From Catajapyx aquilonaris (taxonomy: Eukaryota), in the NCBI GenBank assembly GCA_000934665.2, contig KZ538250.1:1-64000 (forward strand): a DNA stretch of 64,000 nucleotides, read 5' to 3'. The notes beneath the pieces were generated by a model. The model saw nothing but the letters and a program-made list of their open reading frames with translations, had not been told where the DNA came from and ran no database searches. Below, piece after piece: positions 3,501 through 53,947 of this stretch. Numbering within the stretch: the stretch's first letter is position 1; every line of letters starts with the position of its first letter. A program made the translations under genes and the position numbers.

Positions 3501-5417
3501 TTACAAGGGTACTTGCATCAAAAAGTTGCGGTCGTGTGGTGCGGATGATGCGGCTCGGGGTGAAACTTAGCGAGAAAAGAGACCGCAGCAGGTTGTGTCA
3601 TGACATGGTCACAGCAGGATAAACTCTTAGTGACCTATACCCATCCCCTATGTTTTTTTATATATCAAAAATAGGAACAAGAGCGGTAATAATGATGCTG
3701 AAAAACGGCAGAACATATTCCCATGCACCGAAAAGTTTGGTGGTGGTGGCGTTGAAAATGTCAGAAGCAAAGGCTTTGCAATTATACACTGACGCTATCT
3801 TTTGTGCGCCTCCCATCCCAGCAGCCGGTCTGGAGCTCATCAACTCAGCTGGTGCACAAACCATGCAATGTGTACGTGCTTGTATGCAAACAACTATCCT
3901 ACTCCTTGGTCAAATTTTGGAGGTGGATTTTGTAGCGTCCAACTTGACTTGGATCCGCAAACCTCAAACCTATGTATACACACGGACTGGATAGCTGGCA
4001 AAGACGGATGATGATGGACGAGGAACCAAATGAATAAAGGAGTGGGCGAAGGGCCTCAGGGGGCCAAGACAGATCACTGGTTGTTGGGACACACGTACTC
4101 TGGTTATCTATTTGACGAGGGGAAAGAGGATTATGTGCTTCAGGGGCCGAACTGATCGCGTCTGGCCGCCATGTTTAGTTCTGGATGGCATGGTCGGGGT
4201 AGGGACACATCAAGATCAGACTGCGGACGGGGCAAGTTAAGCCAATGATGTTGCGCCTTAGGGGGTAAATTGGTGGGAATGGTGGGGTGGGACTGTGTGG
4301 GACATAATTTATTGCATTAGGGAAGTTTTACCGCTGGACCCCGAGTTCGGATTCTAAACAGTGACAAGCCCGGTCTGTAACAACTAACCGAGACCGGGCG
4401 CTCTTTCATGTTCGTCACACCATAATTCATTATGCCATCATTCACTCTGATTTTTAATTCAATCGGTGTAAATTAGCGCGGTCGTTATTCGTTAATCGGC
4501 ATTAAATGCAATTGTCACGGATCTTGATGCCGTGCTATACTCCTCGTAAAACGCAGGTTGATGGTGTGCCGAGTGGAGAGCATGGTTTGCAAGCAAAGGC
4601 TAACGCGCCCTATTCAGCACTGCAGGTGTGATCATATCTGATGAAATAATGTCCCACTGGTAGCCAAATGTCACCAGATAGTAATAGGAGCACACATAGG
4701 TATTGTTTGTTCTGTTTACGATTATTATGGCGACTGACTATCTAATTTCAATATTGCAATGATGACACGATGAAAAAGTCATGATAATGAAACCTTTGCG
4801 TCTTCGAAAGCGATTTAGCTGTAGAATGTGGTGGGTCAACAGCGCCTTCTCTGAGGTTGGTTAAGGTAATATACCTCGAAAGGTCCAATAAAATCACAAG
4901 CACATGCAAATGAATCGGCACAATTTTTAAGGCATTTTTAATGGTTTGTTGCCGGCTGACATTTGACCTGAAAGGCCCTAGTATTAGGTTTTTGGTCTGG
5001 GGCCAGGCTCTACCTCGGTGGAAATCTTGATTTATTCAATAGCCCCATGAACAAGACATCGAATCTGGAAAGAATTCCAAAATAATGAATCTGGCGTATT
5101 TTTAACTTTCGTTTAATTACATGCAATCGCCAGTTGTAAGTACTCGATAATACACCAGTGAAGTGGCCCTAAATATAGAGGTTGAGTGGGATAGTGGTGC
5201 TCTGGTGGTCGCAAAAGAGCCACTTTTCTGTGTACCTACTAACCCAAAGGGGCATTTTCGGTAAGATGTAAAGCTCTCTCTACTACGGCGAGGGTGAATT
5301 GGTTATCTAACTTTTCGAGATGAGCCTGAAGGTCGTTTATCATACTCGGGGAAAGTAGATTTCAGAATTAGGCTCGTGTGGAAAAATGCATTCACAGGGC
5401 TCTAAATTGGATTTCAC

Positions 5418-10039: not shown

Positions 10040-13000
10040 TGGTTGGAAATGCTAACAAACTTGAGCAAACTTTCGTGTGTCTGGAAGGGTGCAGTTAATT
10101 ACCGTAAGCTGCGTGAAATCTTACAAGACAGGCAAAGTTTGAATTGCCATAACGTAAGTTGGGTAGAGCAAGCTCAGCTATGGAAAATTTTCCCTGGGCC
10201 TATTCCGCCTATTATTTAGGCCTGAAGCATGGCTTAGGCCAGGGTGGCTCCAATTTGTCGAGATGTTCATTCGTCTATGTAGGTAAAGTGTAACCTTCTC
10301 GGGCTTTATTCGTTCTTTGTCTATTTCATTTTTGGCCCTGAAGGCTTCCAATATCGCACAACTCTCAAAGCTCGCTTAAACGTAGCTTAGCGTCGTGCTA
10401 ATTATTTATCTTAAGCCGGAGCAATCTTCATTCACTTCCGCGCTAATTATAAGGGATCTTAGTAGAGCTAATTGACATTCCCCCACGTTACGCTTTTATG
10501 TCAAGTCCCGCACGAACAAAAGCCTTCCATTGCAACATGAATGAGGGACTTTGGACCTAAGACGTAGACTACATTTTTCCTTTGTTCGGTGCTGAGACAC
10601 CCTATGATTTACAAGGGTGATTCTGCAACAGGGGGGTACCGCGCCTATAATAACCAATTTTGCCTGCCTCGTTGGATATTCCGGAAACATCGATGCTAAT
10701 TTGGCCATTAAAAATACCCGGTAATTAATCGGTGACTGAACCAGTTTTCAATTCATGCCGTGGCTAACTAATTTTGCACTTGACGAAAAAAATAGGCCCT
10801 ACTAATTGGATATCCAACACCAATGATGACTTTTTTCACGCGTCAGTAGACCACCCGAGGTGAACTACTGTAATAATGAAAGTATTTTTTTGTGGACCCT
10901 ACTCTTTGTTGTGTTAGCCAAGAAGGGCTATATGTGGAAAGCAGTGGTATATATGTAGGTTCAGGACCGTTAATGTAAGTCTAAGTAGAAGTCTCCCCTG
11001 TCACGAACAGTAACACTGGCTTCACCCCCACCACAAGCGTGGCTTTGTCCAGCACGTGTCACGGTTGCCACCCTACCAGGATACATGGGAATTTCAGCGA
11101 GATTTGTCCAGCTGTTAACACTTGCCAGCTCTGATTTTCCTCCGCTTGCTGCCTCAATATTCCCCACCGCTCCACTAAGACGATTACCATACTTGCTGCT
11201 GCCAGAGTGGAGTTTCTCAGCCCAGCGAACACCAAATACTTTCCACCAAACTCGGCATCCTCTCCGCTGCCAACTTGCCATCTTTCTGTACTCCCTGGCT
11301 GCAGCACCCGTCGCAAAACGTGTAATTAGACTAGAGAGACTGTCACTATGAGCCACGATCTGGGCCGCATAAATAATTTCCGAGTTCAAAGACAAGTTTC
11401 AGGATTGGGATGATTGCACTTAGAGCGGACATAGCCAATTTATTCCGTCCATCCAAGGGATAAAACGGCGTTGAGTTAGGAGCTACTCACACAAGAAGCT
11501 TTGCGTGGGGAAATTCAGGATTTGCCAACTTGATCGTCCTCTGCTGCTTCTCTTTGTACCCTTGTTTGTGCTGCTTTTACATGCCGATTTATGCTCAATT
11601 GCTCCCACAAATGGGGAAATAATTGCCATTCAGTTTACGTGCGCATGTATGCGCTTGTGAACAGAATACTTGAGCGGCAGGGCCATGTTTTTGGATCCCC
11701 ATGCCTGTTCAAGGAGAGTGAGACAGAGAGAACATCGATATTGTATTTCCACACACACGACCTAACGCTTGGATCCACACCCCCTCACCAATTGAAAACT
11801 CTGCCTGCCAACTAAACCATTCACTACAACCCAGTTCAGCCTGCAATACAAATGATCCAGCCCCAAACAACAATTCCGTCCAACTTGTCGCGCCGCACAA
11901 AAATACTGTCCCCAATCAGTATTTTGTACCCGTTAATAGCCGCGTTTCATGTCTCGACTGATGAACGCTTGTGAATGAACAAAAGTTGTGGACAAGAGGA
12001 TTCTCTTCTCTCTCTCTGTGTGTGTGTATACCACCATCGGAAGCTGAGTGATGAGTTGAGTGAAGCTTCCGCATGGCTTTAACTCTCTCGAGCTGGATGT
12101 TCCACCCAGCAGCAGGCCCGGACGAATGTCAATGAGGCGTGCTCAAATCACGACTGTGCCGGACCTGCTTGACTGCTCAACACTCAAATATTGTTCCGAC
12201 AGACTTTGCATTGCAACCAGACGTGTGACGGGAAAAGGTTGCCGGCCAGGGAGGGAGGTCGAGGGGAAAGCAGGAGGAATGATGTCACATTTTTTACATC
12301 CCTTTCCAAAAAATGGATGTTTAGTCGGGTCAGGGAGCTTATTTATAACGACTAGATGCCGGCAGTGTTTTATGGAAGAAGAAATGTTAGCTATACATTT
12401 TTTCATACCATAGCCTACTATGGAACACGCTGAATTTTTGCTTATAAAATTCATAAGCTTCAATAAAAATGAATATGCATGAAAATAATACGCGGTACTT
12501 GACAACTAACTATGAATGTCACATATCGGCAAAAAAGTGCACCATTTTTTCTCTCCAAATGTTCTAGCAGGCAGGCTAGCTCCAGTCCATTTGCAGGGGC
12601 ATTGTTGAAGCGAATTTCAAAGGCAGGAAAGCTGGCCAGTAAAGTCGAGATGATGAGGCAGAATCGGGGGAGCAGAGACGCAAGAGCCTGGCAGCAGGAA
12701 ACAGTTGATTTGAGCAGAGTGCAATGATGGGGAATGAGGCGAGGGAAAGAGCGGTCGCACTGCTCAACGAATGATGGGAGGAGGATGGGAGGGAGGGAAG
12801 GCAGGGGATGGAGGAGAACCAGGGACGGGGGTTGCACCAGTTTAGCCTGTTTCCAACATCAATCCAGTTCAAACGTGGATTATTCCCTCAAATCACTCTT
12901 TGTTGTTAATGGTTCGCTTTTGGGTTGTATTGTCAAGTTGTATTGTCTTTCCACTTGTTTAGGATGTGGGATACAGGATCACTTCTGGTGTTCTGAAAGT

Positions 13001-13051
13001 GACAAGTTGCGTGGATGTGGAATAAAATTCTCTGCTTATATATGCTGCATA

Positions 13052-13057
13052 TTTATT
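13052..13057 (-). terminator. Polyadenylation signal AATAAA of the - strand Gly-rich secreted protein gene
   Basis: TTTATT on + at 13052-13057, about 55 nt downstream of the TAA stop at 13113-13111. Confidence 0.7.
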
Positions 13058-13110
13058 AACTATAGAGAGGAAATTGGGTACTGATCATGTAGGTGCATAT
13101 CGGTCACTTG

Positions 13111-13419
13111 TTACGAAGTAGTAGATTCTCCTTGGGAGGCGGCTGTTGTAGATGATTCGTTGTTTTGGGAAGTGGTGGATTGGTCGCCTGAGCCCGCTGC
13201 AGTGGTAGTGCCAGCTGCGGTCGTGGTAGTTGTTTTGCAGCCTTTGCCCTTGCCTCTGCCGCCCCTGCCTCTGCCGCCCCTGCCCCTGCCGCCCCAGCCC
13301 CAGCCTCTACCTCCGCCTCTACCTCCGCCTCCGAACCAACCCCAGGGTCCGAGACGAAATCCGCCTCCAAACCCACCGTCTACTCCTGTATCTTCATCTT
13401 CACGACGCTGAGCGAAGGC
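13111..13419 (-). CDS. Exon 2 (terminal) of a small secreted Gly/Arg/Trp-rich protein with a Thr/Ser-rich tail
   Basis: Acceptor ...ttacttttgccag|GCC (phase 0). Open frame to TAA: AFAQRREDEDTGVDGGFGGGFRLGPWGWFGGGGRGGGRGWGWGGRGRGGRGRGGRGKGKGCKTTTTTAAGTTTAAGSGDQSTTSQNNESSTTAASQGESTTS*. Gly and Thr use mixed synonymous codons, as expected of coding sequence rather than a simple repeat. Confidence 0.85.
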   Translation of the reverse strand, partial: AFAQRREDEDTGVDGGFGGGFRLGPWGWFGGGGRGGGRGWGWGGRGRGGRGRGGRGKGKGCKTTTTTAAGTTTAAGSGDQSTTSQNNESSTTAASQGESTTS

Positions 13420-13642
13420 CTGGCAAAAGTAATGTTACATTCGGTTACACTACTAATCTTAGGTCCGGTAACACCGCCTTCAAAATTTTTGGCAACTACG
13501 AATAACAAACTTTTCTGACCCTTTTCCAACCGTATAATTTATTTTACTTGAGGCGATGCAATCTTAGGACCGGTTTTATGAATAAAAATTAACACAAACT
13601 GCGAGTTAGTCTCCACAGAAATACTAGCAATAAATGGAAACG

Positions 13643-13668
13643 AACTCTAGACTCTAGAGTCTAGAGTT
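13643..13668. repeat. 26-bp perfect palindrome AACTCTAGACTCTAGAGTCTAGAGTT
   Basis: Sequence equals its own reverse complement; lies in the intron of the - strand small gene. Confidence 0.9.
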
Positions 13669-14329
13669 TGCTTTAAATGATCCACCGTCTAACCTTGATG
13701 CTACTCCACACCAAACCTAAACGCGATAGTTTAGGTGATAAGGTCCTCACAGAGTTGTCTTGCACATGACAATTTCCGAGGTACCTTGCGGGGCATGGAT
13801 AACTCCGCATCTTGCCGAGAGCCTTATTGCCCTAAGTTATCGGGTTTTAGGTTGGGGTATGGGATGGGATTGAGATGTGACGGTTGATCAGCGCTGCCAC
13901 AAAAAATTGGCTCCACTATATAGAAAATTTGCTTTTAACATCTCCTCGAAGGAGTTATACCCTGTAGCATGTATAGTGCGCTACAGGTTACAGTACAAAA
14001 TGCATAATTTCGGGACACATTAAAAACAGTCTGTATAGGTGTTTAAATACTGTATACTGCATAGATGATGCACTGTGAAGTCTCAGTTCAATATATACAA
14101 TAGGAATACATCAAGTTGTGAAATGTTTAGCCCAATAAGTAAAAAGAAGCAACTATCAAGACAAGTGTTGCTTGCAACAAGCTTTTCTCCCTTAAACTTG
14201 TTACTGGACTAAATAATCCGTAACTATCTTCCCCTCTTTTCCCCATTAACTGGAGATGTGAGAAGTGCACCACCCAAGTTTACAGCGATGCTAATATAAC
14301 AAGTTGAACTTTTAAAAGAGTGGTCTTAC

Positions 14330-14383
14330 CTGCTGTACTACCAAGATTACCAGAACGGCACACAGAACCCAAGAGTACTTCAT
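14330..14383 (-). CDS. Exon 1 (signal peptide) of the small secreted Gly-rich protein
   Basis: ATG at 14383 in context ATCAACGATG, then MKYSWVLCAVLVILVVQQ and donor CAG|GTAAGA in phase 0. Splicing to exon 2 completes MKYSWVLCAVLVILVVQQAFA, a typical signal peptide ending A-x-A. Confidence 0.85.
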
Positions 14384-14401
14384 CGTTGATTCTCGTTCAG
14401 G

Positions 14402-14440
14402 GAATGCTGATATGTTCACTTGCTGCCTGGAGTTTATATA
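14402..14440 (-). promoter_or_regulatory. Core promoter of the small gene: TATATAAA box (14440-14433) and initiator-like ATCAGCATTC (14411-14402)
   Basis: TATA lies about 30 nt upstream of a near match to the arthropod initiator (TCAGT/GCATT type), which is about 25 nt upstream of the ATG. Confidence 0.7.
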
Positions 14441-15198
14441 CAAAACCTACCCTAATGTCTGCTGCTGATACATTCGGTGTTTTACATATTTTGCAATAAT
14501 TCCGGATTTCTCCGGTCATTATCAAATTGTGATTTAAATTACCCATCTGCGCTACATATGGTGTTCCTGCATTACTTGTGTGTTTTGTATAAGCTGCTGT
14601 ACTTATGATCTGCGTCACCTTTTATGAACAAGTTTCTACATGTTTTATCTACGAAAGTTGCCTTGCCATTCAGTTTGTATACGAACAGTGGACGAAAGCT
14701 ATAGCGTCATCCGTCCTAAGCAGTAGGAATATTATGGTATATTCGTGCAGATGGAGAGCAGTTGTGTAAGCTTATTATTCACTCCAGTATTTATCGTTGC
14801 ATAATTTTAACATGAAAAACTGATCTTACTATTCATTGATGCATCATTTTGGTTCCCATTTATAAAGCATGCAAGAATAAATTACGGCTATATAAACATG
14901 TTACCATAAGTAATGCCATGAACATGGAAGTTAAACTCAGAGTTGAGTAAAGCGAAGATGTTTTTGCAGTACTTATTACGAACATCGCTTCTGTCCATAT
15001 GTTACATGTAATATATTGCCTTGGGGGAAAGGAGATACATCACAATGGGCTTCGTCGAGGTGACTGTAATGGTGATAAAGGCAGGTTTTCACGCACCTGC
15101 CTCATGTACCTGCAGAAGTGGACATAAACGATGGTAACAGTTGTATGAAGTGCTACATTGAGATATAATAAGTGACATTTTCTCGCTGGTGAAGCAGT

Positions 15199-16590: not shown

Positions 16591-17905
16591 GTAGCCAATC
16601 TGATTGGCTGCACGTGTCTCTTTTTCTCTGCGTGTGGGACATTGCTGTGTGTTTTACATTCCTACACGCCGGAAAAAAAGCGATTGAAAACATTATATGT
16701 GTATCGAACCGACATTGGACTGTCGATCACGCAACCGCATTGTGCAATTGTGTCATTTGCGGCCAGTAGGCTAGATATCTGTATGTGAGTGTGTGTGTGT
16801 GTGTGGGGGGGGGGGGGTGTTGGTTGTCGCAAGCGACAGGATGCAGTGGCTCACTAACATGTGTGTTGGAGAGATTGGGAGGCTGATGATTTTGGCTTGC
16901 TATAACCATGGGATTGGTGTGTCAAAGTACTGTAATTGTGCAAGAGGAAGTGGGCCAGTTAATTGCAAGGTTTGGTTGCAGGGAATTCCCATACCTTGCA
17001 GAGGGAGTCCACAGAGGGCATGTAACCTAAAATGTGAAATAGTAATGTCCAACATGGGCCATTTGACACTTGTAGTTGAATTCACTCGCAAAAAGTGTCT
17101 CAGTGTCAACTCGTAGGCATATTTTTGCATTTGACTAAAATAACTTCAGGCTGGCGGGTTAACTGTAGCTGAAATGGAAATGATTAATTCTAATGGAGTT
17201 TCTGATGAACACCATTACTTTTTTTTAGAGAATAAGCTTCTCATACCGCCATTTTAAGATGAGAGGCTCTTTCTTCTCGCCTGCTTAAAATTAATGGCGT
17301 ACTATATTGCTTTGGAGAGGATACTATAGGCCTACATGTATACATCACCTGATGTGCATGTTGCGGCGGATGAGCATGGTATAGGAAGGGCTGGTAAGGT
17401 TAGCTTTATCACATTCATTCTACGTTTGAGTTAAACTTATCGCAGCTGTTATTTATAAATGGCATACATCTAAGTAAAAATAGTAAACATACAACTCACT
17501 GTGCATATACAGTACTTGACACATTTTAAATTGTATTAACATTCCGGGATATTCTGGCTAGGAATTAATTCGGCTGCACAATTTGCAGAATGACACAAAT
17601 CTATTGTGCCGTAACATAGCTTCTGGAGAAGGGTAGCCTCACTTTTAAAATTCCGGACACGCATGTCGTGACATGTAATAAAACATCACCTTTGTTCCGG
17701 GCTGCTGTGTGATATAGGTCACGTCCTTACTGCGGAAATAAATTTCACGCCGAAGACGACGGATAGCTTCTTAATACGGGTTACGTGCTAGGATCCGTCA
17801 GGGCCAGAAAACACTTCTCCCACACCAGGTGTCTTAAAAAACGGCATATTTTTGGATCTGCTACAAGAGGGTATACAGGCATTTCGAAAGTGAATCGGCC
17901 CAACA

Positions 17906-17977
17906 GCCTCTGTAGTTTAGCGGCAGAACACATGCTCCTTGTGAGTGTGGACCTGGGTTCGAATCCCAGCAGAGGCA
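17906..17977 (+). pseudogene. tRNA-like element (pseudo-tRNA or tRNA-derived SINE head), 72 nt
   Basis: Acceptor stem GCCTCTG/CAGAGGC plus discriminator A; D-arm GTTT/GAAC with A-box TAGTTTAGCGG; T-arm CTGGG-TTCGAAT-CCCAG (B-box). The anticodon arm is non-canonical (loop CCTTGTG lacks U33 and purine-37). Confidence 0.7.
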
Positions 17978-20900
17978 GAAGGGTTCGAATCACCTGTTTT
18001 CTGTCCTTGATTTTTGGGATATTAGAAAAGTGTGTACATCCCACTCTTTTCAAACAATACAAGCAGATAGGTTTTTCACATAGTACTATAGTACTCGTCA
18101 CATTCCGCCATCTGCTGTTGACTGACGGAAGTTTACTGTTAATCCTGCACTTCGTTTGCATGGGTAATTTTGCAGAGGTTATTTACCACAAGTGGGACAC
18201 GTAGTACAGAGCAACAGGAACAATTTCAAAAAGGCGTTGGAGCATATCTGGTGATATACACAAGAAAGGGAGATTATTCCGGCCATTTAACAATTCCGCG
18301 CTGCCTGGAGGCTTATTTCGCAGCATTTCGCGGCAGGGAATAATGCAGCCACATAAATTTTCAAGCCAGAATAGGATATATTTTATGGTTGTAGCTTGGA
18401 GGAGGGAAGAAATCAGGAAGAATAAAGCAAATGAATGGAGATGAGTGCGACAACACGTCATCTAGATATTAGCGATTTATAAAGCTCAAACGAGTATATC
18501 ATAATTACACTTATCGTGCCAGGAGGTTACTACCAGAAAGTTGCTTAAAGCTGTGTGCTATATTAAGCTATATAAGTTTGTGAGCTCTAGCAGGCTGGCC
18601 TACATTTTAAAGTTCAGTCTTTAGGTACATCCTCCTACACTGTATGCATTACTTTTTCTCGCTTAATTGTGAAGATATGCCTTAAGCCCATTAGAAGGAT
18701 AATAGTTTAGAGTACTGTAGAGACACATTTGTTTTAAAGTCTTCCTTTTAGTTCATATTTTGAAATGCATCTTTACAATGAACAAAATCTGCCTCGAAAA
18801 TACCAGAAAGCAACTGAACTTCTGCCTTATGTTGCATTTTAATTGAGTCCAGATGAACTACTGATGAACTCTCTGTAGGTTTTTAATGTGAGACAGTACG
18901 AATGAACTCTAGCTGAATGTATCATTCAGCTAGAGTTCATTTGTTACCCCTCAAAGAAAACGTCCGGAAACTTCGAAATAACGAGCTTACCTTAAAGACA
19001 TCCCTAGAGTGCGCAGCAAAAATTTTCTTTTGTTGTTGTTACTGGTCTGCTTTGAAGGGAATATCGCTTGAAATATATCGTATAATGATGCTGCGTTTCT
19101 AGCCAAATATTATTACGCTCAAAAATTGCTCTTTTTGCATGATATGTGATGTTCTCATATAGAAATATTCAGCTGTATAAAAACTACGTTTTGATTACCT
19201 ATCCGCACTTCAGGTTGTATCGATATGCATTTTGCATTGTTCTGGTTGTTGGTCCTATCCGGTAGCCAAGTTCCATACACAGCCCCTGGTTGAATCTGTG
19301 TTTCAAACCTATTATTCACATTGTGTACCCATAGAGCCGAGCCGGGAATTGGCTGTGAAACCAGCTTAACATCAGTAGGGAATAATGCTATGAAGACTGT
19401 TTTTCCTAGAACCACTTATAGGCTTTTGGTTGACTCGGCGATTATCGGCAGATCTGGCTCTTATCTGCATGGATCCGCCAATAAACCGCGAACTTGCAAG
19501 GGATTTTGGGCAGCTCGCCTTTAATATTTAAATTGGTAAAACATGTAAAAATAATTGACACCCAAAGTGCGTTCAAATCCTACTCGATACTGCGGATGAC
19601 ACATTTCCCGAAATGACACTGCCGAACGTTCTTCTCTTTCAACTAATCCCCTCAACTGATTACTAGGCATCGTTATCAGCTTTTTATCCTCGTCAGACCT
19701 CTAATCACTCATTACCAGCCAAATCCCTGCTACATGTGCACTTTATTTCCCGCTAATAGCAGCTTAAATTTGTATGACCCCGATACATCGAATTGCTCGC
19801 TCTGAAATAGTCAACCAAGTTTACGTACATGCGGAGAAGGTCTGGCATCTGGGGTGCTGGCACATATCTACGAATGACTGGATTTGAGGGTTATGGGGTT
19901 GATGGTGCAGAGTTAAGCTGTCGAAAATAATAAAGGTTGGCACACCCATCAGTGAGGGAACACCTGCCGGTACATGCTCCAGCACATTTGGGACCCCAAA
20001 ATGAGGAATATTCAACAAGTTGCTAGTGACTAACTGTAAGTGCCGGGCATATTAGAGTATTTCTTTGACATGTCAAAGGAGCGCCTAAATTTCTTGCTAT
20101 GTTTTAGGCTAACGTTTAGGGTCGACTATATTGCATTTCGCAGCTATGGAAATGTGGACATTATCCAGTATAATTATGAAGTATGGCATCAGTGTGCTCT
20201 TTATATGGCACTTTCATTAATTTTGAGAATAGAATTAGCAAATAAGTTATGGAAATCCAAGTAAGGCAGCAACACAAGTTAAGCGAAATTATTTCTTGAT
20301 TACGTGTTAACGGAATTATACGATATATTGTGACTTTTTAAGTGAGGTTTGTATAAGATATCTCATTGCCACTAATATTTCCTAAAATCTCCGACTATAA
20401 TTGCAATTATTCCAATATGACATTTTGATAATTTTAGTAGTGTCATAGCATACCTTTACTAGCTCGTTGCTTGATTTACAGTAGGCTGATTCAAATGTTA
20501 AAATAATTGGCGAGAATTGGCCTACCTTTGAAGAATGAAACTGTTTACAAGCAGGACTTTCTCAAAAAGGATGTGTGGCGTGATTATTAGTTGCTGACTT
20601 TTTTATTACTGCTGATTTTTGTTCACTTTTCACGACCATCTCTCTGCGTTTTGTAACCGGAAGATAACGTATACAGTAATTTAGGAAATTATACACATAT
20701 GGGGAAAAATCATTACCACAACATTAGACTGAAATCAGAGTCTGCATTGGGAGTTGAAATATATCGTAACCTTGGATATAATAAAAATGCTTCCTGACCA
20801 CACATCCGTTCTACTATCTCCCGTGCAACCAACTTGTGCTGGTATTTATAACCACTCCACTCTAACTTTCGTCACATTACTAACTATCCATATCAATGTA

Positions 20901-28300: not shown

Positions 28301-29146
28301 CCTCCCAGTGTTATCCCCCCCTATAGTATGGGCCCCAAACTTTATGAGAAATGACCTGGGCTCCCAGTGAAACGCTGTTGCCACGTCACTTTTATCCTCT
28401 TTTTTTGTTTACTAGCGAAAAGAGCCTGTTACGTTTAACAATGTGGTCCTGATGTATAAACCTTTAGAGTACAATGCAATCGGCTGGCAGCAAAACTCGG
28501 GATCGGAGAATATAATACTGTATTGTACATGCCTTTATTTCTTATGGAAATCAGTTTCAAATAGTTCACCTAGATATCTACTGGTTCGTATTTTTGGGTG
28601 CGTGGCTAGGGTGCATGGCTAAGGGAGAATGTGTGAGGTTTTATAGTTACCCTTGCTTATCAGCATCATTTTGTCGAATATTTATGGGACGGTGATGGGA
28701 CCCAATGTACTGCAATGCCCGACACACGCGATTGGGCAGTTGCATGGAGTGATGGCAAATGGGAATTATTCACTGCTTTTGTGAAGCAAAAAATGAGCGT
28801 AGGTAAACTAGATCAGTAATTGGCTGTTGGTAGAGAGTTAATAGAATCAAAATGTGTAACAGATGCTTTTGTTCGTTGAATTCTTTGTAATTTTTTCATA
28901 TGATTGTACAAGTGGAAAAATAGGGGTTCCACGTGAGTCAATGATATTTATATGTGTGTCTTTAACCTTAAAAATAATGTTTCACCGCGAGAACGCCTGT
29001 GATGTACGACACATCTCGTTCAGAGGCATCAACAACAATCCTATCAATGACAATAAGTTCCATACAAGTTATGTCCCTCCGTACAACATATTTAACTTCT
29101 ACTTGTCACTGTATAAACCATTTTTCTCTCTCTCTCCTATTTCCAG

Positions 29147-29274
29147 AACTCACAATCTGACCAGATGGGACCACTTCCACCTTGGGATCCGGCGGTGGGA
29201 ACTGTACTCGGAAAACAAGTCCGCTGTCGACGAACTCCTGACGGACATGTGCACTCTGCCCATCGTTCATATCA
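29147..29274 (+). CDS. FAM20C: FAM20C-type secretory pathway kinase, internal exon (start of conserved region)
   Basis: ttccag|A...ATCA|gtgagt; translates THNLTRWDHFHLGIRRWELYSENKSAVDELLTDMCTLPIVHI, matching the FAM20 W-x-x-F-x-x-G-I...ELY segment; phase 2 in, phase 1 out. Confidence 0.88.
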
Positions 29275-30227
29275 GTGAGTAGCCCATCCCGTAAACTGTC
29301 TCTGTGTGTGTGTGGCATACGTGACCCCTCTCGCCCTGTCCATCCCACCACCTCCCCCCATGAGACGAGAGTAGTGCATCGGGTTCAAATTCATTTTCCA
29401 TGCTGCGACGGATTCTGCTATAGTTGTAGCGGTCATTAAACAGAGCCCGGTGGCTTAGTCAGTCCAGCTGTATCGCGGCAAAAGCAAGACAGTCAGTCAT
29501 TCCCGGACATTGGGATACCCCCACCTCCATGTACACCATACTCTCCCGGATAATAGAGAGCCGAGCTCGCGTTGAATAAACGAGATCGACGTTGGGTTTT
29601 GCAGGGGTGCTCAAATTGGTTCAACTGTCACTGTTCGCAATTGACCAACAAACACAACAAGCACGAGCTGGACTGCGTTGGCGTCTATGCCTAGAGCTGT
29701 TCTTGACAGCTGGTGGTCAGAGCACCTATAGGAATTGTCAGTACATTGCATTGGCTGGACTTTGATTGGTTCTCAGAAAGGGAAGATTGACGACAAAACT
29801 TGGACTAAGGGTGTCTAGCCTGTAGCTAAACTATAGAATAAAAGAAATAATGAAGAGTGGACACCATTGTTCCCTGTGGAGAATAGGGAGTGTCCATCGA
29901 CTTGGATCGTAATCATTTTAATTGGATGTTGTTGTTCCTGTCTGTTACGTAAGTGCACTTCAGTTTTGTAAAATTCTATTTTTATCTTATGGAGATGTGT
30001 TTTAAAGTTGCCATTTTTATTTCCAGTTTTATGTTGCTAAAAATTGTTGCAATGTTCATTTATTTTTAATTATTATTGAATTCATTGATGCTTGAGTGCA
30101 CTAAGCATGGATTTTATGATATTTTGGATAATATCCTGAGCTTAGGCAGCCAACATGGATTATTTTGGTAAAATTTTAAACTGACTCAAGTCAGCATGCA
30201 CCGTTCACTGTATAGCATAAGGCTATA

Positions 30228-30540: not shown

Positions 30541-32818
30541 TAGCTTATGTATCCTTGGCCACTTCTTTGATAGTTTACAAGGAACTAAGTAAAATCGAAG
30601 TAGGCCTAGCTACATTATTATTTCTAAACATTGCTGTAGTTTCCTAAATCTGTCCAACCCTTTCTCGTCAGTAACACAGTTGCCAGCTACAGGTTTTCCC
30701 ACAATAAATCCAAAATGTCAACCACCTGCACTCTCCGCAAGTCTACCGTGGCATTTTGTGCAGCGTGACACTGACAATTAACATTTAAACCAAAAGCTTC
30801 TGCCTCCTGGTATGAGGAATCCGGATTAAAAATAAACCAGGGTCATTCTCAGCGTACAAATCGGACACATAAATGAGGTTGGCGACACGTACAGTACACA
30901 GGACATGCAAGTCATTCTCACGTAAAACTCACGAGTTTGCATGAATATACCATGAACATAACTTCCACGGACGTCCGATCTGTAGACGTCCCTGGCTCAA
31001 TTAATTTATTATTCCACTTCAAAATGAGATACGGGCGTCAGGGCTTGTCACAGCTTCCACACAGAACTACTAGATGGAGCCAAAAAGTCATCCACAGAGT
31101 GGAGCAGTTGGATCGGTCAATGCGAACCGTTTAATAGCAACGAGAATAACAAGTACAGTCCCATTATAGTAAAGTAGCATGGAATTGACCTCCGACAGTG
31201 CAATAGCTGCTATTATTACAAACCGGTTGGGGCGACAGACACGTTGTGGTGTCGCCGGCTGATCGGAACACATGGCAGACAATTAATTAATAGGTGCAAT
31301 TGTATTGGACCCATTTGGAAGGGGGTGGGAGGATGACGAATCAATCGATGTCCCCTCCGATGCGTGATGCCCTTTGTTTTGTTTCGCAATAGGTAGTATT
31401 AGTGTTATTATTTAACCGTGTAAATTCTGATTCGATTCAAATGTACCGTTTTCTTATCCGTGTTTTTTCGCTCCAGTTGTGTAAGGGAAGCTAAAAATGC
31501 GGTTAGGATCGGTTAACACCCAGATCTATAACTTGAGATGACGGCTCATCTATAGTGGTAAGTGATAGTCATGCACGTGCAGAAGGTACCGTACTGTGAA
31601 ATATCTCTCTAAATGACGTATGTGACCGTAAATGAGCAGGTACTGGTGCAGATATCGAGTAAAAATATTGCATTGATTTTATCCAGGAAGTTTCGTAATG
31701 TGCATGGGAGGCAGGGAAGGATGTGACTATATTTGGGACTTTGGTGTGAAATTTACATTCACAGGTGGGTCCAGGTGGTCTGCCTTTATTGGAGCGAGAA
31801 TAGCCTCACATATGCACGTGCAGAGGTGTTCAGCCTAGATTCCAGAAGGTTTCTCATTTAATGAACAGTATGCATGGTTCGCGTCAGATTCAGGAAATGG
31901 TTTCGGTTGAGAAATGTTATGCTTCGTGACGTATTGACTAGGTCGACTTCAAATGTATTGGAAAAATCCTTTTCGAGTCGCATTCAATTAGTACCACATT
32001 TAGCTGACGATAAAAGAATCATCCAGATACGCGTATATCAAGGCGCATGCGTACTGCCAAATTTACTTGCATGCTCGTTAGCTCGAGTGTGTGTTTTTTG
32101 GGTTCATTTTGGTTTTACTGGCACTAGTTTAATTCGAGTTTCTGCCGACTGTCCTTTTGAGACACATAAAACCGCTTAAATATAACATGATTCTGGTGCG
32201 ATTATATCGTACATTCTTTTTTAGTTCATGGCACTCGTGAGAATGTATACCTTAAAGTGGATAGTCAATATTTAAACCTTTCTTGCGGATATTCCACCTC
32301 TTCCACATTGGAAAATTATTCTCGCACTGTAATGTGCTGCTCCGGGACAAATTGGAACTAAGAAAACTATATTTCAGAAACTATCTGGAAAACACATCCT
32401 AGCGTATAAATGTCGATGCTTTTTTCCCCCCATATGTTTCACCTTGGGAGAGTACACCGACGAGTTTTTCTTTGATATGAAAAATAATATATCCTTCATT
32501 CAATGGCGGTATTGATATTGCCGCACGACAAAGAAACGATGATCAGCTGCAAAAATGACATCTTCCCAACAAGCGTGTCAGTAATAATTGTATACTCTAA
32601 TTTGACTGAGAAGGAGGGCAGGTTAATGTCCTGTGCATAACTATAACGCTAGCCTCCCTGTTGTAAATCATGAGTGGGTTGGGTACTCAATTAATGAAGA
32701 CAGTGCATTCCCTATGTGAAGTCCTATGCCGGATGTCCTGTCATTTTATTACCCAGCACCACAGGAGCGGATGGCCTTTGAATCTACCACTCAACAAACT
32801 GTCTATCTCCCATTTCAG

Positions 32819-32897
32819 CTCAGAAGGAGGGCGGCACGCAATTGAAACTCATCATCGACTACAGTAATGGTGGCCAGGCTCTTTTCAAGCCCATGAG
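32819..32897 (+). CDS. FAM20C: FAM20C exon (79 nt): Gly-rich loop and ATP-binding Lys
   Basis: catttcag|CT...ATGAG|gtaagg; [27 protein letters not shown] contains the GGTQLKL and ALFKP hallmark motifs. Confidence 0.96.
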
Positions 32898-35800
32898 GTA
32901 AGGCACTATCAGACTCTCTCATATTACAGTATAGGACTCCAGTAATTTGCAATGAACTTATTATATAGGTAAGGTAAAGGCAGGGGGATAAAATTTTGAT
33001 TCTGTGGATCGTTGAATTTCTCCCGGATGGGATGCTTGCCGTTTGGCTTAGGTGTTTTATTTATACCGGAATTGGCAATGCTAGTGACGTTATGTAGTTT
33101 CCATTACGGCTGGTAGGAAGCTGTTAGCGGACCGAAGTGGGATGTACCATTTTTACCTACGGAGGGTTTTTAAAAAACTTTGCGGGTTTTTCTCGTCAAT
33201 AGTCTCACGGAAAATTGTTGCAGCAGAACTGACCAATTGGTACTTTTGGATCGAATGTTGCGTCAGGTGAACGTAAACTAGCTGATCGCAATTATAAGTA
33301 ACAGTCAACGACGACCGCTGCATTTGACCATTATTTTTACTAAACTACAGATTTGCTTTGCGGCGGAACGGGACTACATGCATTGTAATATTGAATTTAC
33401 GACATAATGAGGAACGCCTTGCATTATATGCATTCCATCTTAATATTGCCATAGAATTTTAAAATTGTTAATTACATTGTTAATATTATTAAAAAAGTCA
33501 TTGGTACCTGTTTTAAAGCCGAATGCATTATTGGGACAGCAATCACAAGTAAGCTAACTAACAAAGACAGTTTGGATAAGAAAGTGTGTGCTGTTCTTCA
33601 TGATTCAGTATATAACAGCTGTGAGGTGCAATACCCGACAGTGCTCGGTGAACTCCTATCCAGTGAAATTTTAATAGCACCCACTAGAATACAACCTATG
33701 CTAAAGTCTCACTGTAATGTGAAGTGCAGGACGGACACATTGTGAATCGATGGCCTTCTACTTTTGGCTTAGATTATTAATTCAAGTTCTGTACACACAA
33801 TATTGAAAACTTGAGCCAATATGCGCACCACTTAGCAAAGACCTTGTGTTAAGGTGTGTGTACACGTGTAATATACTGTATTATACCCATAATATGTTAT
33901 ATTCTCACCAGTGGTTTACTGCATGGCATGCAGGAAGTGCTCTATTCGAGGCAACATCAAGTAAATATGTAGACGCCGATGAACTTTGCATTCCACTTCG
34001 CTTCGGTAACCCACATTTCACGTTGCTGCTTCCATTTTAGTCTGGGATAGACAGCAATGTGTACTGTACAGTGCACGAGTCACATGCCAGATTGATCAGT
34101 TGTGTTGCCTAGTGAGTAGGATGAATGTGCTAAACGGAGGCCATAAGCCAGACCAACAGTGAATTCACGGAACGAGCATCAGTATAGACGTTTGGTAATA
34201 TGTAGCGGCTACAACTTGGAATCTACCATCTGTAGACTGAAAAGACGCAGCAGAGAGGGAGACACATTTGGTTTATTTAAGTAGAACAGCAAGGCCGCTT
34301 CTTTGTCTTTTTCCCTGTACACAACGTGTTTGAGAGCAAAGGGATTGACATTGTTTTTGTTTCGTTTGTCTCCCCCAATGGTCTGGATGAGAGGCCGATG
34401 TGCAGTGCACCGTGAATCGGGTCGAATCCTTTCCCTCATGGGGACGTCGCCTGTTGACTGAGTGACTGAGTGACTGACTTTCCAGACCCTTTTCTCTCTA
34501 ACTGACATTGGAGACTGGCTTCCTCCGGCAAAGCCAGGAGGTCATTAACCAAGTCGTGCAAATCGGATGTTTGACGCTCAGAGTTGAGGAAAGCGCGTCT
34601 CCTTAAAGGAGAAAAAGAAGGCATCTTGACCTACTCATAGTCGACAAGTTTTGATCAAAATCCGGTTTGTGTAATTATTCACAATAATTGTTTTAGGATG
34701 TAATAAATTGTACTAGAGGAATCGTCTGCATATAGTACTTCTCACTGATGGTAAGAGGGCAGGAGGTTGATGCCAGCGTGACCGAAGATCCTAGTAACTA
34801 TTATAACAACCTACAAGCCACATAAAGCTATAAGTCGGAATGAATCGTCCGTGCTGCTCGACAATATATTTAGTACTAGGTTAGTTTCATTTTAAATAAC
34901 ATTATTCATAAATGTCCCTAGAGAGGGAGATCGGTCACTTGTGAAGAAAAGCTACCGCATATTTGTTATAGATGTTTAGTAATTGATCATGTTATTATTG
35001 TATTATTATAAAATATACTTTGTTCCCATAATTTTTGGCTTTCAATATGTTAGAGCAACTGATCGGAAGGATACCCGCCTCGGAAAGACTAGCTCGTTTG
35101 TTACACCTGCATCCTGTCGGCTATTGAGCTTCTTGCGTCTATTTCTGTTTTTCTCCGCTATTGGCCAGTCATGTTGCTTGGAGCCTGTTATTGTTATCTG
35201 GAAAACTAGGGGCTGGGGTTCGTATCACGTATGATGAACTGTTTGGAGGGGGAAAGTGGAGGTTGGAGGGTGGGGGAAGTTTTTAACAAATAACTACACT
35301 TAGAATAACTTATGTTGCAGATGATTCCCAATGATAGAAATGAGCATGATATTCTGAAAATGAAAAGCGGGTGCAATTCGACATTATGGGAAAACAATCA
35401 TTTTAGATTGGAATTTTATCCTGTAATGGAAAATGGGTAATATGAATTCAAGCATTAGTTCGGATTGCAATGTAGGAAAATTCCCCAGTGGCTCTTTGTG
35501 CTCCAGTGGATAATAAGGTTGCCTTCGTATTAACAGACTAATGCCAGTAAAATATAAATCGCCTGTGCATTAAAAATATTTAAATGACGAGAAGAGGTGC
35601 CAGACTATGCTAGTAATTTTAAAATAATTTTCAGGACACTTTAATGAAATATTCTCCATTGATATGGGAGTGTGGGTAATACAAAAATATAAAGGTGCCC
35701 TAAATACAACTGTCACTATACGTTAAAATGCATATGTATCTTTTTTAGGCATACCAATATTTTGTACACATAAATGCGTTCACAGGGATGATAATGTTTC

Positions 35801-37959: not shown

Positions 37960-38749
37960 TACTGTGTTTTACGTGTTTTTCAGCCACTTTCCATCGATCC
38001 AGGATGGTTCTCTTTTGCCACAGTTGAAACGCATATATAAATTATATGAGTACTTACCCCTGCCTATTTCGGTCTATTAACATTTAACAGTGCAGTATTA
38101 ATATTTTAGAAGACTTATTGTACGTGTATTTAGCAAATCAATACATCTCTAACACTGCTAGAGGCTTATTATGCATTACAGTGTATGTTTGTCTGAGTTA
38201 AATCAACTGATGTGTTCAGTCAGTTGTTAATAATACGAAATGTGAACGTGCTTGATTGTAACGGAAATCGTAGTCAGTACTTGATTATTGAGCTCCGAAC
38301 CTGATGCAAATTATGAATTCTCGTCGGTATTGCATATTTACCAGAAATAAAATGGACACCCTATAGTTCACAATCATTCATGTTTGCGCGAGAAGGTACA
38401 GATCGTAACTCCTGCTTGAAGGTAATTAGTAAGAAATCACTATACGGTACTTTCAAAAAAAGGGCGTTAATTTTTATGAGTTGGATCAAAAGGGAAATAT
38501 TGTCATTTTTTCTGGTGTAAGTGAGCAGTTATCAGAATGCATAGGGTCTATTATTTAATGTGGCAATGTATGATTACATTCAATAGGTTTAACAACAACA
38601 ACAACAATAATGATGATGATGATAATTCCTGGATTTTTGCGTTACTCAGTATAGAAAGATTGAAAGTTTATCTGAGTGATATTATACTCCAAACAACTGA
38701 AAACTGTTGCAGCCATTGATGGATGATTGATTTGTCTTTGCCTTGCCAG

Positions 38750-38842
38750 GTTTCCTCGCGAGCAGCAGACTCTACCCAATCACTTCTACTTCACCGATTT
38801 TGAGCGACACAACGCTGAGATCGCAGCTTTCCATCTGGACAA
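38750..38842 (+). CDS. FAM20C: FAM20C exon (93 nt) with the [13 protein letters not shown] motif
   Basis: ttgccag|G...GACAA|gtgagt; [31 protein letters not shown]. Glu in DFERH indicates an active FAM20C rather than FAM20A (Gln) or FAM20B (Asp). Confidence 0.97.
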
Positions 38843-41434
38843 GTGAGTATTATACAAATAATTTTATGAAGGGTTCACCTGTGATTCTCGTGATTTCGAG
38901 CGATAATTTTTCCATACGGAAACATTGAACATTACTTTACGACAAAAAGTATTAGTACTACCGGTACTTTAAAAAAAATATAGGAAAAATCTAGATCACT
39001 GATGGTTGCATAGCGTCAGGATACGTCTGGCCAAAGCAAGTACGAATTACATTTCATTATTTTTCTCTCCCGTCTACGCCGCCATAAATTCAAAAGTGAG
39101 GGAATATCCTGCTGATTGGGCAACTCGACTGTCACAGGGGGCTGTGGGGTGGCTTGACCAAAAGGATACTGGTATTTCTCGCTGTTCACATGATTGTGTA
39201 CAGAGTATGTCACCATACGACGTAGTAATGTCTCCCATCCACATACGATGTAGTACATTTTGAAATAGGCCAACTGTGGGAAATACTGACCATTTGCAAG
39301 ATCGAGATCTTTTGGGCAGATCTGATTTTCTCCTACTTACCTCATTTATACTGCATACATAGCAGTTCACCAAGTTAATGTCCTTTAACTGATGCGAGTA
39401 TTTTTCTGATAGTACCTGCATATTCGGTGTTTCATCCAAAATTTTGCGTCTTCTCTCCGCCCACCCCATTTTGGGCGGCGGACATCGCCTTAGCCACTGC
39501 ACAATAACAGATGACACTAGTAGCAAAATCACAATAGGCCGTTTTGCTCCGGCAGGGTTGTGGCAGCTAAAGCGCCTATTTGAACGCGCCTCGACGTGGA
39601 TTGATTGCAGAGTCTAATGCTATTCCCTGGTGATTAATCGGCCCTCGTAAAAGGAATGCAGGCACCTTAATGGCGGCGCGAATTGAGATTCCCCGCTCGC
39701 AACCCAACTTCTGTTTACCAATTACACTTTCAACCGGTACTCGTTACGATCTTCTGAATCAGGCAATAAAATTACGCCAGGAAGATAATGGAGTCACGTG
39801 CAGTATAATGGAGATAGGAGAAGGAGAAGATGAGGAGAAATGCTTGACTCTGTGTTGTACCAATGTAGACACAGCAGCATGCGGCACTTCCCCTTGCTTC
39901 CATCTTGCAGGAATTTTCATATCGGCAGACTCGGCTTAACAATGGCGTCATTCAAATATGTCTACCCCCCCACCCCCACNCCCCCCCCAGCGCCACTCGG
40001 AGCTTAGGCAGTGCTTGAGCTGAGACGTCGATAAGTGAAGCTTACCAGGCTCCGCGTGCCAGACTCGCAAATGAATAGCTATTGTTTCAGACAAATGACA
40101 TTCCAGGTGATAAAGACCTCTCGCACTTGTGGAAAAGTTTTGCTCAGGAAACGGAATATAACCAGCTGTCAGAAACAATCAGTTGTTTTGGCATCCAGTG
40201 TTGTCATTGGATCAAGTAATGGCTTCAGTTTCTGGAGCGTTTCGTATAGTAAGGTGGCCGCTATTCTCAGGTCCATTATTATCACGCAGCAGAAATTGGA
40301 AAGTGGACCACAATCGCGTAATAGGATGCCATGGTGTTATTCGATATTCATAAAAATAGTATCGCTGGACAATATTGTATACCAGGTTATAACAAAGTTT
40401 GTGTAGATCAAAAGGGTTTCGCGACAAGGAAGAGGTTGAAAACCGTGGCTTTAGATGGAGAATTTCCATCGGGAGGCTAAAGGTAGGGGATGACTGATGT
40501 ACTGGGAGAGGGAAATCTATCAATTTGAACACCATTCTTTATTTTTTCTGCCAGAGGCAACGGAGAAGACCTACTGCTGATAGCAAGAGATAGATAAATA
40601 CCGACTGATCTCACGGGTTTGATTTTGATATCATCGAGGAAAAGCTATCCCATTTCCGTCTACCGCTTATTGCATTTTCGATTTCAGTGTGATACCCATA
40701 GAGCTGTGCTGTTATCAAGAAGGAAGCCAATGCACTGAGCGCCAATGTCAACTCCTAATATCAGTAAATTCACGTTATTGAAATGATCTCAATTCATCTG
40801 CTTCTGGAGACGTTCTCGGGACTGACTTCCCGGCGTGAAGAGTAATTCGCGTATATGGCCGTTCAAGTATTATACAGGATGTCAAAAAGAGCTTCGACCG
40901 AACGTAAACCCTGGCAAGATGAACATTTCCTCCCTTAACCTTCTAGAGTAGCCAGCTGATAGTAGTGCAACTCCAGGATACCATTGGCCGTAACTATTTT
41001 TGACGTATAGTAGACTACGCGCAAACCCGATACTAACCTGGAGCACTATTTCTAGCATTATGTAGTGCTGTGCAGTATATGAGTAGTATTAGGAGAGATG
41101 AACTGTTCTGCTACTTCCTTATCAGAATTGTGCAGGCTCCCAAGGATTTCTACGCGGCATCCAGTTATGCGAAACCTCCTACTTGGCATGGCCAAGAGCG
41201 CGCTCCAAAACGGCCTAGTAATTTTCTAGCATTGTCCTCATTGTAGTCTCTCTCCTAGCCAACACATTCAAAGTTTCAAAACACTTACGACTAGTACACT
41301 TAATATGCAAATTCGACTTGAGTTGTGGTGTCCTCCACTTCTTTGCGTTACGTGTAGTGCGCTGTAAGTCAGAGTAACAAGTCTCTAGCATTCCTGCAGG
41401 AGCTTTCAACAACTCTAGAAATGATTGATAAACT

Positions 41435-51234: not shown

Positions 51235-53947
51235 GTACATGGTCATCTACATATAGTACCGGTAATATCCATTGGTGAAGCATGACCTATGTGCCCATGT
51301 TGCCCAACGATCGGGACACTTTGTAAGAACGGTTGTGAATACACTATATGAGGCCAAATTCGGTATCCCATATACGACACACAAGGTCATATAACTTAAT
51401 GATGGAGTCATACTTTGGAGGACTCCCAATATATAGTTGGCACAATTTGAAACACTGGCACAGTTTAAAAGCAGGCAGCATGTTTCAGATCATCCTGCAT
51501 ATTGTGCCAGAAAAGTTTTTAAAACCATCCAGTGTAAGAAAAAAAACCGCTCCCATTACAACTGTCCAATCAGCTAAACGACCACATCGCTGTTCACTAT
51601 ACTATGTACGCGTTCCTTCACATTACAGCCGACGGACGTTGGTGTCAAAGAGACTTTGGTACACCCTGCACCCTGTTTGAATTTTCAAACGCGCCTTTCT
51701 TTTTTTTATCCCGTCCTTGGGGCTCATCGTATCTTCAATAAGTGTAGGTTACAGTTGATTGCTCGTATTGAGCAATCTATGGCGGTCTTCTTTTGAAGAG
51801 TCAGAAACTACTAACGGCTGATAAGTAGGACTGCATAGATAGTATAATGCACATACCTCTTAGCGTGATTAAGCTCAGTTTCCCCGGTTCGAATTTGAGC
51901 CCCGCCACGTGTATCGGGGAGTTTCTTTGGCAGCTCTCACACCGAGAGAATTGATATCGAACAGACAGGAACGGTTTTTTCTTGTCACAATAACGATCAA
52001 AGCAGCAAGAAGATTTAGCGCGATACACGTACATCTCCCGGGCTTTCCGTATATAGGTACGGTACACTAGATACGCCTCTGTAGCGCTTGTGAAATAAAA
52101 GGTGCGTCAGAAGGTTCAAATACACACTCTGTGGAATGGATATTTACACGAACATGATATGTGTATGGCTCGGTCAGGAGTAGCCATTTTAGCATATTAT
52201 AATTTCAGTCTATAAGTGTAACAGCTTAGATTTGGACAAATTAAAGATTCCTAATTGCTCCGACTATAACTAGTGATATCATCGCTCTGTAGATAGTCAT
52301 ATAGATAGATGTGCTTCTAAATTGCCACTTGTCAGCCGGATGGCCTTTCAATGAAGATCGCTGACTATATAGGGTTATTCGTTGGACCAATGATTCCAAG
52401 CGGAGGCCTTATTTCCACGGATTTATCGACAATTCCGTGGCTGCTGCTGCAATCATCCTATGAAATCTGGACCTATGTATCATTTGCCCGGCTCGTCAAG
52501 CCCAAAAATTCGGGTCCGCAATTTGGTGGATCTTTTTTTTTACCGATATTTTGTCAAGTTTATGTCATAATATCTTTCGGGTGTGTAATAATAACAAAAG
52601 TATAATACTCCTTTCGAGTGATGGTCTCGGGCCTGAAAAATTATTTTCATAGTTTATTAGCTTGTAACTCATTTCATCCCATGAAATTGAACAATTGCAC
52701 TTCAGTGTAGTACACCTAATTTTAGTATGCAATAACTGACGTCAAAATTTAAAGCTTTCACAATCGAACCAGAGTAAAAAAAATATGCAATGCCACTATA
52801 AAATGCAAGCTTCGCCTATACACATACAGTGTGCCTAATTCTCAAATTACAGTCCCGTATCGTTTGTGAATTGAAAGTGCAATTGTTTCAAAGCGAAATG
52901 CGATAATTATGAGGTCCACAATACGCGCATACTAATAATACCGCAGCTGGGTTATTGTTGGATAATTGACCTCTTGGCGAAAACTCATGAGAGGCGGCCG
53001 GCTCGAGCGGGCGCAATTTCGTTTGGGCCTCCCGCTTTATTACTGGCTGCAGTGGAATAATGTGGCAGTCACACAGATAGCTGAATGAACCGGGCCCACA
53101 GTGAAATATTCAGGAACAGATACCTCAGACACGGCGGAACTTGTAGCCGTCATGGCAAATATGACCGAAACATTCACGTTCCCGACAGGCCAAGGTCTGC
53201 CACGGTTGGATTTCTACTTAAAATACACATAATTATGCAACCTTTAGCTTTATTAACACACTGTAATATGGCCATTTTGGTGCACATGTGAAATCAGCCC
53301 TGTTCACTGCTATTTCGCAAAACTAGCTGCGATTTCCACCATGTGAAGGCCAGACTCCTCAGCCCAGTACCTCACCGGTAGGAAAATACGGTTCTGCATC
53401 GCCACAATTTAGGTGCGGAGAGGAGTTCGCTTAGGCAAAGTCTCCATGAATGTCGTCTAATGACACTATGAACCTCCCCAAATTGCTCATAAAAGCTTCT
53501 GCGTCTTGTTTCTGTCACGGAATGTGGCGGATTGGGAAATTTATGGAGCGCAACCATTGTTCGCGCTGACACAGCTGGAAAAGAGTATCTTGTGCGCGGG
53601 AAGAAAATGATAAGGCGGGGCCCACGGGCACAGCTACTCTGTCGGAGCTAGGGGTAAAGTGGCCCACTCGCATTCGGATGGGCATAGTCGGTTCTGGGTT
53701 TGGCGGACTTCCCCAGGTTTTTCTGCTTTCACAAGCTTCATTCTGAGGGTGGAGTGTATTCTTGTTCATTAGGCTGAAAAGGGACCAATTACCTTTTAGA
53801 CAGCATATAATGTTTAATGTTTAATATTTTGTCACGTTTAAAGTTGCTGCTAGTAACCCATGATTTGTGTAGGTAATCTTAGACAAATTGGTATTACAAA
53901 CCGCGAATTGGAGATCCACACTTGTAACAGTTATGTTTTCCTTCCAG

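Follow-up and report, generated by a model that had tools for sequence, protein, structure and literature searches.

In this study, we describe a small two-exon gene on the minus strand of a 64,000-nt stretch of the Catajapyx aquilonaris genome (contig KZ538250.1 of assembly GCA_000934665.2, positions 1 to 64,000; hereafter the window), situated between positions 13,052 and 14,440. The gene almost certainly gives rise to a real spliced transcript, and its product, a precursor of 120 residues, is judged from its sequence features likely to be translated and secreted. The best reading of this product is that of a lineage-restricted, secreted and disordered polycation that would be a homologue of no named family. 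By analogy with described proteins, host defence would be its most likely role, with an adhesive or matrix function as the main rival.

A sequencing run from another sample joins the two predicted exons

A first-pass annotation, made from the letters alone, had placed a TATA box, an ATG, two exons with their donor, intron and acceptor, a TAA stop codon and an AATAAA signal on the minus strand, and our own reading of positions 12900-14600 recovered every one of these features of a two-exon gene where it had been placed. The TATA box (TATATAAA, 14440-14433) precedes the presumed start site near 14408 by about 32 nt; since TATAWAW matches are common in the window (62 in total, about 0.58 per 600 nt), it counts through its position relative to the gene. 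The initiator-like site that had been proposed near 14408 is indeed found 32 nt downstream of the first T of the TATA box, but its sequence, TCAGCA, is only an approximate match. The presumed 5' untranslated leader (14384..14408) contains no upstream ATG and carries an A at -3 of the start codon, and the reading frame opens at the first ATG of the leader (14383) and runs through both exons. The coding part of exon 1 (14383-14330) has 18 codons and is followed by a phase-0 intron of 910 nt (14329-13420) with donor CAG/GTAAGA and acceptor ttttgccag/G, the slash marking the splice point. Exon 2 (13419-13114) contributes 102 codons and ends in the TAA stop codon (13113-13111), and the 3' untranslated region (13039..13110) includes the AATAAA signal at 13057-13052, 54 nt beyond the end of the coding frame.

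Support for the splicing event comes from public sequencing runs, the contigs of which we compared over positions 12700-14800. These comprise four DNA-type runs, from which the window itself may derive, and a further run, X5, which is from the same organism, stems from another sample and study, and has 0.21 of the sampled words. A 178-nt contig from X5 covers 13315-13418 and 14329-14401 and skips the 910 nt in between, so that its join coincides with the predicted junction to the base. The ends of the skipped segment read CT..AC on the plus strand, which corresponds to GT..AG on the minus strand; the contigs themselves show no strand, and the minus-strand orientation of the transcript therefore follows from these splice dinucleotides. 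The DNA runs X1 and X4, by comparison, each span the whole stretch in one piece, intron included. That an independent run skips exactly this intron while the DNA runs keep it bears out the proposed 14330/13419 junction and indicates that the arrangement is more than a product of chance. We take X5 to be RNA-derived because the intron is missing from it, because its other pieces at the locus are confined to 13039-13265, and because the whole run amounts to 31.8 million letters of contigs. The contigs of X5 leave the sequence upstream of 14401, that downstream of 13039 and, within the repeat part, positions of about 13266-13314 uncovered, and such blanks are evidence neither for transcript ends nor for absence. 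Word depth over the exons is high (106-949) in X5, a measure that cannot rank expression.

Two features of this region are recorded here as separate observations. A 75-nt fold-back contig of X5, the arms of which are reverse complements, lies at 13039-13083 just past the AATAAA signal and is probably an assembly or library artefact. In the intron, the pieces 13500-13534, 13572-13607 and 13756-13787 recur at 90-95% identity in other contigs of the DNA runs, where their flanks differ, and hence the intron carries fragments of dispersed repeats; it also contains a palindrome with a perfect centre and a threefold TCTAGAG mini-repeat (13638-13673).

The spliced frame is predicted to encode a signal peptide

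The gene had been described as invisible to the open reading frame (ORF) track, in which only other frames over exon 2 appear, and we found the same: the exon-2 frame, which read from stop to stop is open over 13111-13434, is missing from the list of frames with ATG, GTG or TTG starts even at a minimum of 20 amino acids, because it lacks an in-frame start codon, and three other frames over the exon are listed. For an animal genome it is normal that a spliced gene escapes a prokaryote-style ORF list, and the verified gene model presented here is one beyond the reach of such simple listing. On the plus strand, the antisense of the Gly-rich exon (13085-13411) forms a 108-codon Pro/Leu-rich open frame that mirrors the coding repeat; taken as a gene in its own right, this frame finds no support in the splice orientation.

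When the exons are joined, the N-terminus of the translation shows a basic n-region and a 14-residue hydrophobic h-region, both encoded by exon 1, followed by an A-x-A motif and then Gln, a textbook n/h/c arrangement. It is the first three codons of exon 2 (A-F-A, 13411..13419) that complete what we predict to be a signal peptide of 21 residues, with cleavage after AFA and with its coding sequence split by the intron. A crude signal-peptide rule of our own, which includes the -3/-1 rule, passes the spliced N-terminus (best 12-residue Kyte-Doolittle mean 3.36) and passes just one of the 583 unspliced ATG-started frames of 30 open codons in the window, in keeping with the initial suggestion that the signal peptide is complete only in the spliced product. 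Under a looser rule, the spliced h-region is the most hydrophobic among five candidates in the window.

The frame also carries what may be signs of constraint on the encoded protein. Two TTTAAG units in the tail of the translated product differ at 4 of 18 bases, all of them third positions and all synonymous. The probability of such third-position differences at random is 15/3060 = 0.005 for units that were picked after being seen, and the pattern suggests protein-level constraint in this frame. In addition, the 15 Thr residues draw on all four ACN codons, and the Ala and Ser codons are mixed too, which argues against simple slippage as the source of these runs. The Gly/Arg part, on the other hand, holds near-exact tandem repeats of 12 and 15 nt that look like a recent expansion.

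Searches for relatives of the product

All homology queries used the exon-2 product, that is 102 of the 120 residues, and it should be borne in mind that the composition correction of HMMER penalises low-complexity matches, so that relatives of low complexity may stay hidden. Pfam returned no family at E≤0.1 and phmmer no match at E≤0.001 among 1.84 billion representative proteins. A word-indexed protein collection gave none at E≤0.01 among 8000 scored candidates for the whole query and none at E≤10 among 2076 candidates for residues 1-45. The ESM Atlas produced no usable match in two attempts, with a 'recognition' value of 1564 that lies below the level reached by 91 of 100 known-family proteins, and the Protein Data Bank (PDB) held no match at E≤10. 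At the DNA level, the searches covered metagenome contigs and the window. Among the metagenome contigs, none of 595 pattern matches was upheld by tblastn. Within the window, tblastn with the filter off detected no paralogue (the best non-self match, at E = 0.013, is Gly-rich noise), and a literature search for an 8-residue core motif found no paper. The first-pass annotation had recognised no named family, and the blank Pfam, representative-protein, word-indexed, ESM Atlas and PDB searches agree with it.

The lack of a homologue in any search would also fit a young, lineage-specific transcript whose ORF is not, or not yet, a functional protein, with a GC-rich microsatellite-like exon spliced to an ATG-bearing one. 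Exon 2 would suit this explanation in being built partly of 12- and 15-nt tandem repeats and in being open in all six frames (73-108 codons), as would the low 'recognition' value in the atlas. We nonetheless regard it as improbable, given that the signal peptide is complete and strong in the spliced frame only, that the start codon has a good context without an upstream ATG, and that the stop codon lies near the poly(A) signal. Moreover, TTTAAG units that differ only synonymously and Thr, Ser and Ala runs that are written in mixed codons are unlike the outcome of pure slippage.

The mature protein is predicted to be a disordered polycation

Cleavage at the predicted site would leave a mature protein of 99 residues (9.7 kDa, predicted pI about 10.7) in which three parts can be distinguished. 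An acidic stretch (residues 22-33; 13375..13410) has a computed net charge of -3, begins with Gln and contains an RR pair at residues 23-24. It is followed by a cationic core of 47 residues (34-80; 13234..13374) that includes 26 G, 8 R, 3 K, 4 W, 3 F and a single Cys (residue 79), which amounts to 55% G, a net charge of +11 and a mass of 4.6 kDa. Seven RG, three RGG and three GGGX motifs (GGGF, GGGR, GGGR) occur in this core, and 7 of its 47 residues (15%) are aromatic. The C-terminal tail (81-120; 13114..13233) consists of 40 residues, 55% of them Ser or Thr, has a net charge of -3 and one N-E-S sequon, and is probably mucin-type O-glycosylated. Over the mature protein as a whole, Gly accounts for 32 of 99 residues, and the composition of the entire protein includes no Tyr. 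AlphaFold2, run on the exon-2 product alone, gave a mean pLDDT of 55, a pTM of 0.12 and no secondary structure, which is consistent with intrinsic disorder, a single-sequence model being weak evidence in this regard. A collagen- or antifreeze-like polyproline-II conformation was considered and rejected, the Gly spacing being irregular and not at every third residue.

A small secreted precursor with many Gly residues beside basic ones, which might act as amidation donors, could in principle be the precursor of a neuropeptide or hormone, from which short, amidated peptides rich in Gly would be released, and the nematode NLPs were first named as neuropeptide-like (PMC6780910). The arrangement of the product speaks against this, and we consider it very improbable: the RR pair at 23-24 is the sole dibasic pair and stands ahead of the acidic stretch, no KR or RR flanks repeated units, and there are no peptide copies separated by spacers.

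Likeness to known secreted glycine-rich proteins

We next consider the families that the product resembles, beginning with Nemuri, for which the description in PMC13720017 reports a secreted Drosophila protein in which a disordered R/G-rich region comes after a D/E-rich one, and RG/RGG peptides that, after entering bacteria, bind multivalently to RNA and ribosomes and, in an arginine-dependent manner, inhibit growth or kill. Our predicted product has a signal peptide, an acidic region and an R/G-rich disordered region with RG/RGG motifs in the same order (PMC13720017), which amounts to architectural likeness and not to homology. Similarity to Nemuri was not detected in the database searches, and the two proteins were likened by description, not by direct pairwise comparison. 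There are also differences: the acidic part spans 12 residues here and about 85 in Nemuri; the core has four Trp and three Phe, whereas hydrophobic residues are said to be few in the Nemuri peptides; and here the core is followed by a Thr/Ser tail. Processing sites are not evident in the product.

A second likeness is to the glycine-rich proteins (GRPs) of tick saliva and cement. GRP77, according to the available account, is a fully disordered protein made as a 96-residue precursor with a signal peptide, an acidic N-terminus and a basic C-terminus rich in Arg and aromatic residues, and it forms coacervates by means of cation-pi and pi-pi contacts, which with age become an adhesive gel (PMC11794139). 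Other tick GRPs are described with 9-20% aromatic residues interspersed with Gly (PMC11794139; PMC5947171). The product studied here is likewise small, predicted to be secreted and disordered, with an acidic N-terminal part and a basic, Gly-spaced part rich in Arg and aromatic residues (PMC11794139), and like the tick proteins it exceeds 20% Gly. As described for ticks, a GRP is defined by at least 20% glycine, secretion, disorder and aromatic residues interspersed with Gly (PMC11772090; PMC5947171), and with 32 of 99 Gly, 7 aromatics in the 47-residue core, a pLDDT of 55 and predicted secretion our product falls under this definition, which is compositional and thus says little about function. 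Compared with GRP77 as described, its aromatic residues are Trp and Phe and not Phe and Tyr, its charge density is much higher, it has a mucin-like tail, and no sequence similarity was detected.

These parallels bear on the main rival to a defence role, namely that the product is a structural or adhesive extracellular glycine-rich protein of cuticle, cement, glue, egg coat or mucus. Arg and aromatic 'stickers' separated by Gly would then drive coacervation and subsequent hardening, the Thr/Ser tail would be hydrated and mucin-like, and the Cys would cross-link chains. The similarity to GRP77 in size, charge polarity and disorder and the 15% of aromatic residues in the core favour such a function (PMC11794139; PMC5947171), as do the high word depths over the exons in X5, within the limits of that measure. 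However, the protein lacks Tyr, the residue by which cuticle and cement proteins are usually cross-linked, and the net charge of +11 over 47 residues exceeds that of GRP77, which is described with 4 Arg in its C-terminal 45 residues (PMC11794139). Structural GRPs, furthermore, often form tandem families, whereas no paralogue was found within the window. A structural role is therefore possible but in our view somewhat unlikely.

With regard to host-defence peptides, the armadillidins are described as cationic peptides of about 5 kDa with 3-7 copies of a GGGX repeat, R as the second most common residue and no defined structure; reports of them are limited to Oniscidea, and a conserved signal peptide serves to recognise them (PMC7017220). 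The core of our product is similarly cationic and Gly-rich, of a comparable size of 4.6 kDa, with Arg second and with X being F or R in GGGX (PMC7017220), and its three GGGX motifs and net charge of +11 fall within the pattern of the family. Other features depart from it. In place of a short single-domain precursor we find a 40-residue Thr/Ser tail without a cleavage site, whereas armadillidins have no long tail of this kind; PMC7017220 makes no mention of Trp. A start of the RPYIGGGG type is absent from the translation, the family being described as variable outside Armadillidiidae (PMC7017220). The window does not point to an isopod either, as an exon of the Fam20C-like gene described below is 73% identical to its Armadillidium match, no closer than to insect ones, and the searches detected no similarity to armadillidins. 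The nematode NLP and caenacin (CNC) peptides are, according to the account consulted, basic secreted peptides rich in Gly and aromatic residues, with YGGWG/YGGYG motifs as their hallmark, and are described only from nematodes (PMC6780910). The product shares their basic character, predicted secretion and enrichment in Gly and aromatics (PMC6780910) and, having no Tyr, contains neither motif. Taken together, what the predicted product shares with described proteins is composition or architecture (the GRP definition, the number of GGGX motifs and the Nemuri-like order), and every sequence-based test failed.

A possible role in host defence

We tentatively favour a role in host defence, a proposal that rests on analogy. 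In this proposal, the signal peptide would direct the product into the secretory pathway, and the mature protein would be disordered, with an acidic head, a core of Gly-spaced Arg/Lys and Trp/Phe 'stickers', and a Thr/Ser tail; two chains could be joined through its single Cys. The Arg/aromatic core may remain unfolded and bind polyanionic targets multivalently by way of charge, cation-pi and pi-pi contacts, and these targets might be microbial envelopes or, after entry, RNA and ribosomes. The protein would thereby be a host-defence peptide comparable to the R/G-rich peptides of Nemuri, the isopod armadillidins and the nematode NLP/caenacins, and the acidic head and glycosylated tail may serve to keep it soluble or masked.

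Several observations weigh against this interpretation and against the gene model on which it builds. The type of run X5 is not on record. Exon 2 is open in all three minus-strand frames (73-107 codons), and ORF length alone is thus weak evidence for coding. Relatives were found in none of the protein, profile, structure or metagenome-contig searches. With no dibasic pair between core and tail, a short peptide is not predicted to be released. The 600 nt upstream contain no kappaB-like motif, so that nothing points to immune induction. Finally, Gly-rich defence peptides are not known to carry a Thr-rich tail. In the same promoter scan, GATA sites were at background, with 2 against 1.3 expected per 600 nt.

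A more far-reaching interpretation, which we think doubtful, is that of a lineage-specific and possibly de novo-born 'sticker-spacer' protein with an extracellular, condensate-forming RGG/Trp core and a mucin-like tail. Were it true, the product would be a compact representative of the secreted, phase-separating polycations that are now emerging as a class, and would combine the condensing of microbial ribosomes and RNA reported for Nemuri peptides and the adhesive coacervation of GRP77 in one 10 kDa glycoprotein. Host defence by a disordered polycation remains the reading that we prefer. The gene provides a short, synthesisable candidate for the recently described secreted Arg/Gly-rich disordered proteins that act by multivalent binding or condensation and not through a fold. 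If its core were antimicrobial or adhesive, this Trp-rich variant with its Thr-rich tail would offer an example of the ways in which these activities can be tuned. Small orphan secreted proteins of low complexity are common in invertebrate genomes, and on present evidence this is one of many, which settles no open question.

Genomic surroundings

The most conspicuous neighbour is a gene for a Fam20C-like Golgi/secretory kinase on the plus strand, of which five exons were placed (approximately 29127-29279, 32809-32898, 38748-38843, 53943-54260 and 60761-61045); the introns between them range from about 3.5 to 15 kb. Pfam family PF06702 is recognised in the last exon (E = 2e-44), and among the 120 matches listed the best relatives are crustacean and insect proteins, with 69-80% identity over this exon and about 65-77% when all five are considered. 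The window is thus that of an animal with arthropod-like genes, of which the protein collection holds no very close relative. Some 150 residues at the N-terminus of the kinase were not found, and the small gene may consequently lie either upstream of the Fam20C-like gene or within its first intron, on the opposite strand. A link between the two genes was considered and dropped, as the small protein has no S-x-E site and just one S-x-D. Fam20C-like proteins also gave a weak tblastn match at 3701-3817 on the minus strand (E = 0.04-0.2, about 31-34% identity over 32-39 residues), which is probably due to chance.

Of the 154 ORFs of at least 75 codons in the window, 68 that lie within positions 1 to 30,519 were compared with Pfam, and none of them matched at E≤0.01; five others were scanned against Pfam separately. 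A tRNA-Lys(CTT) gene is present at 17906-17977 on the plus strand according to both Rfam and ARAGORN, and lies inside a region (17767-18201) in which either strand has an open frame of 133-145 codons. The window contains two single N bases, at positions 284 and 39980.

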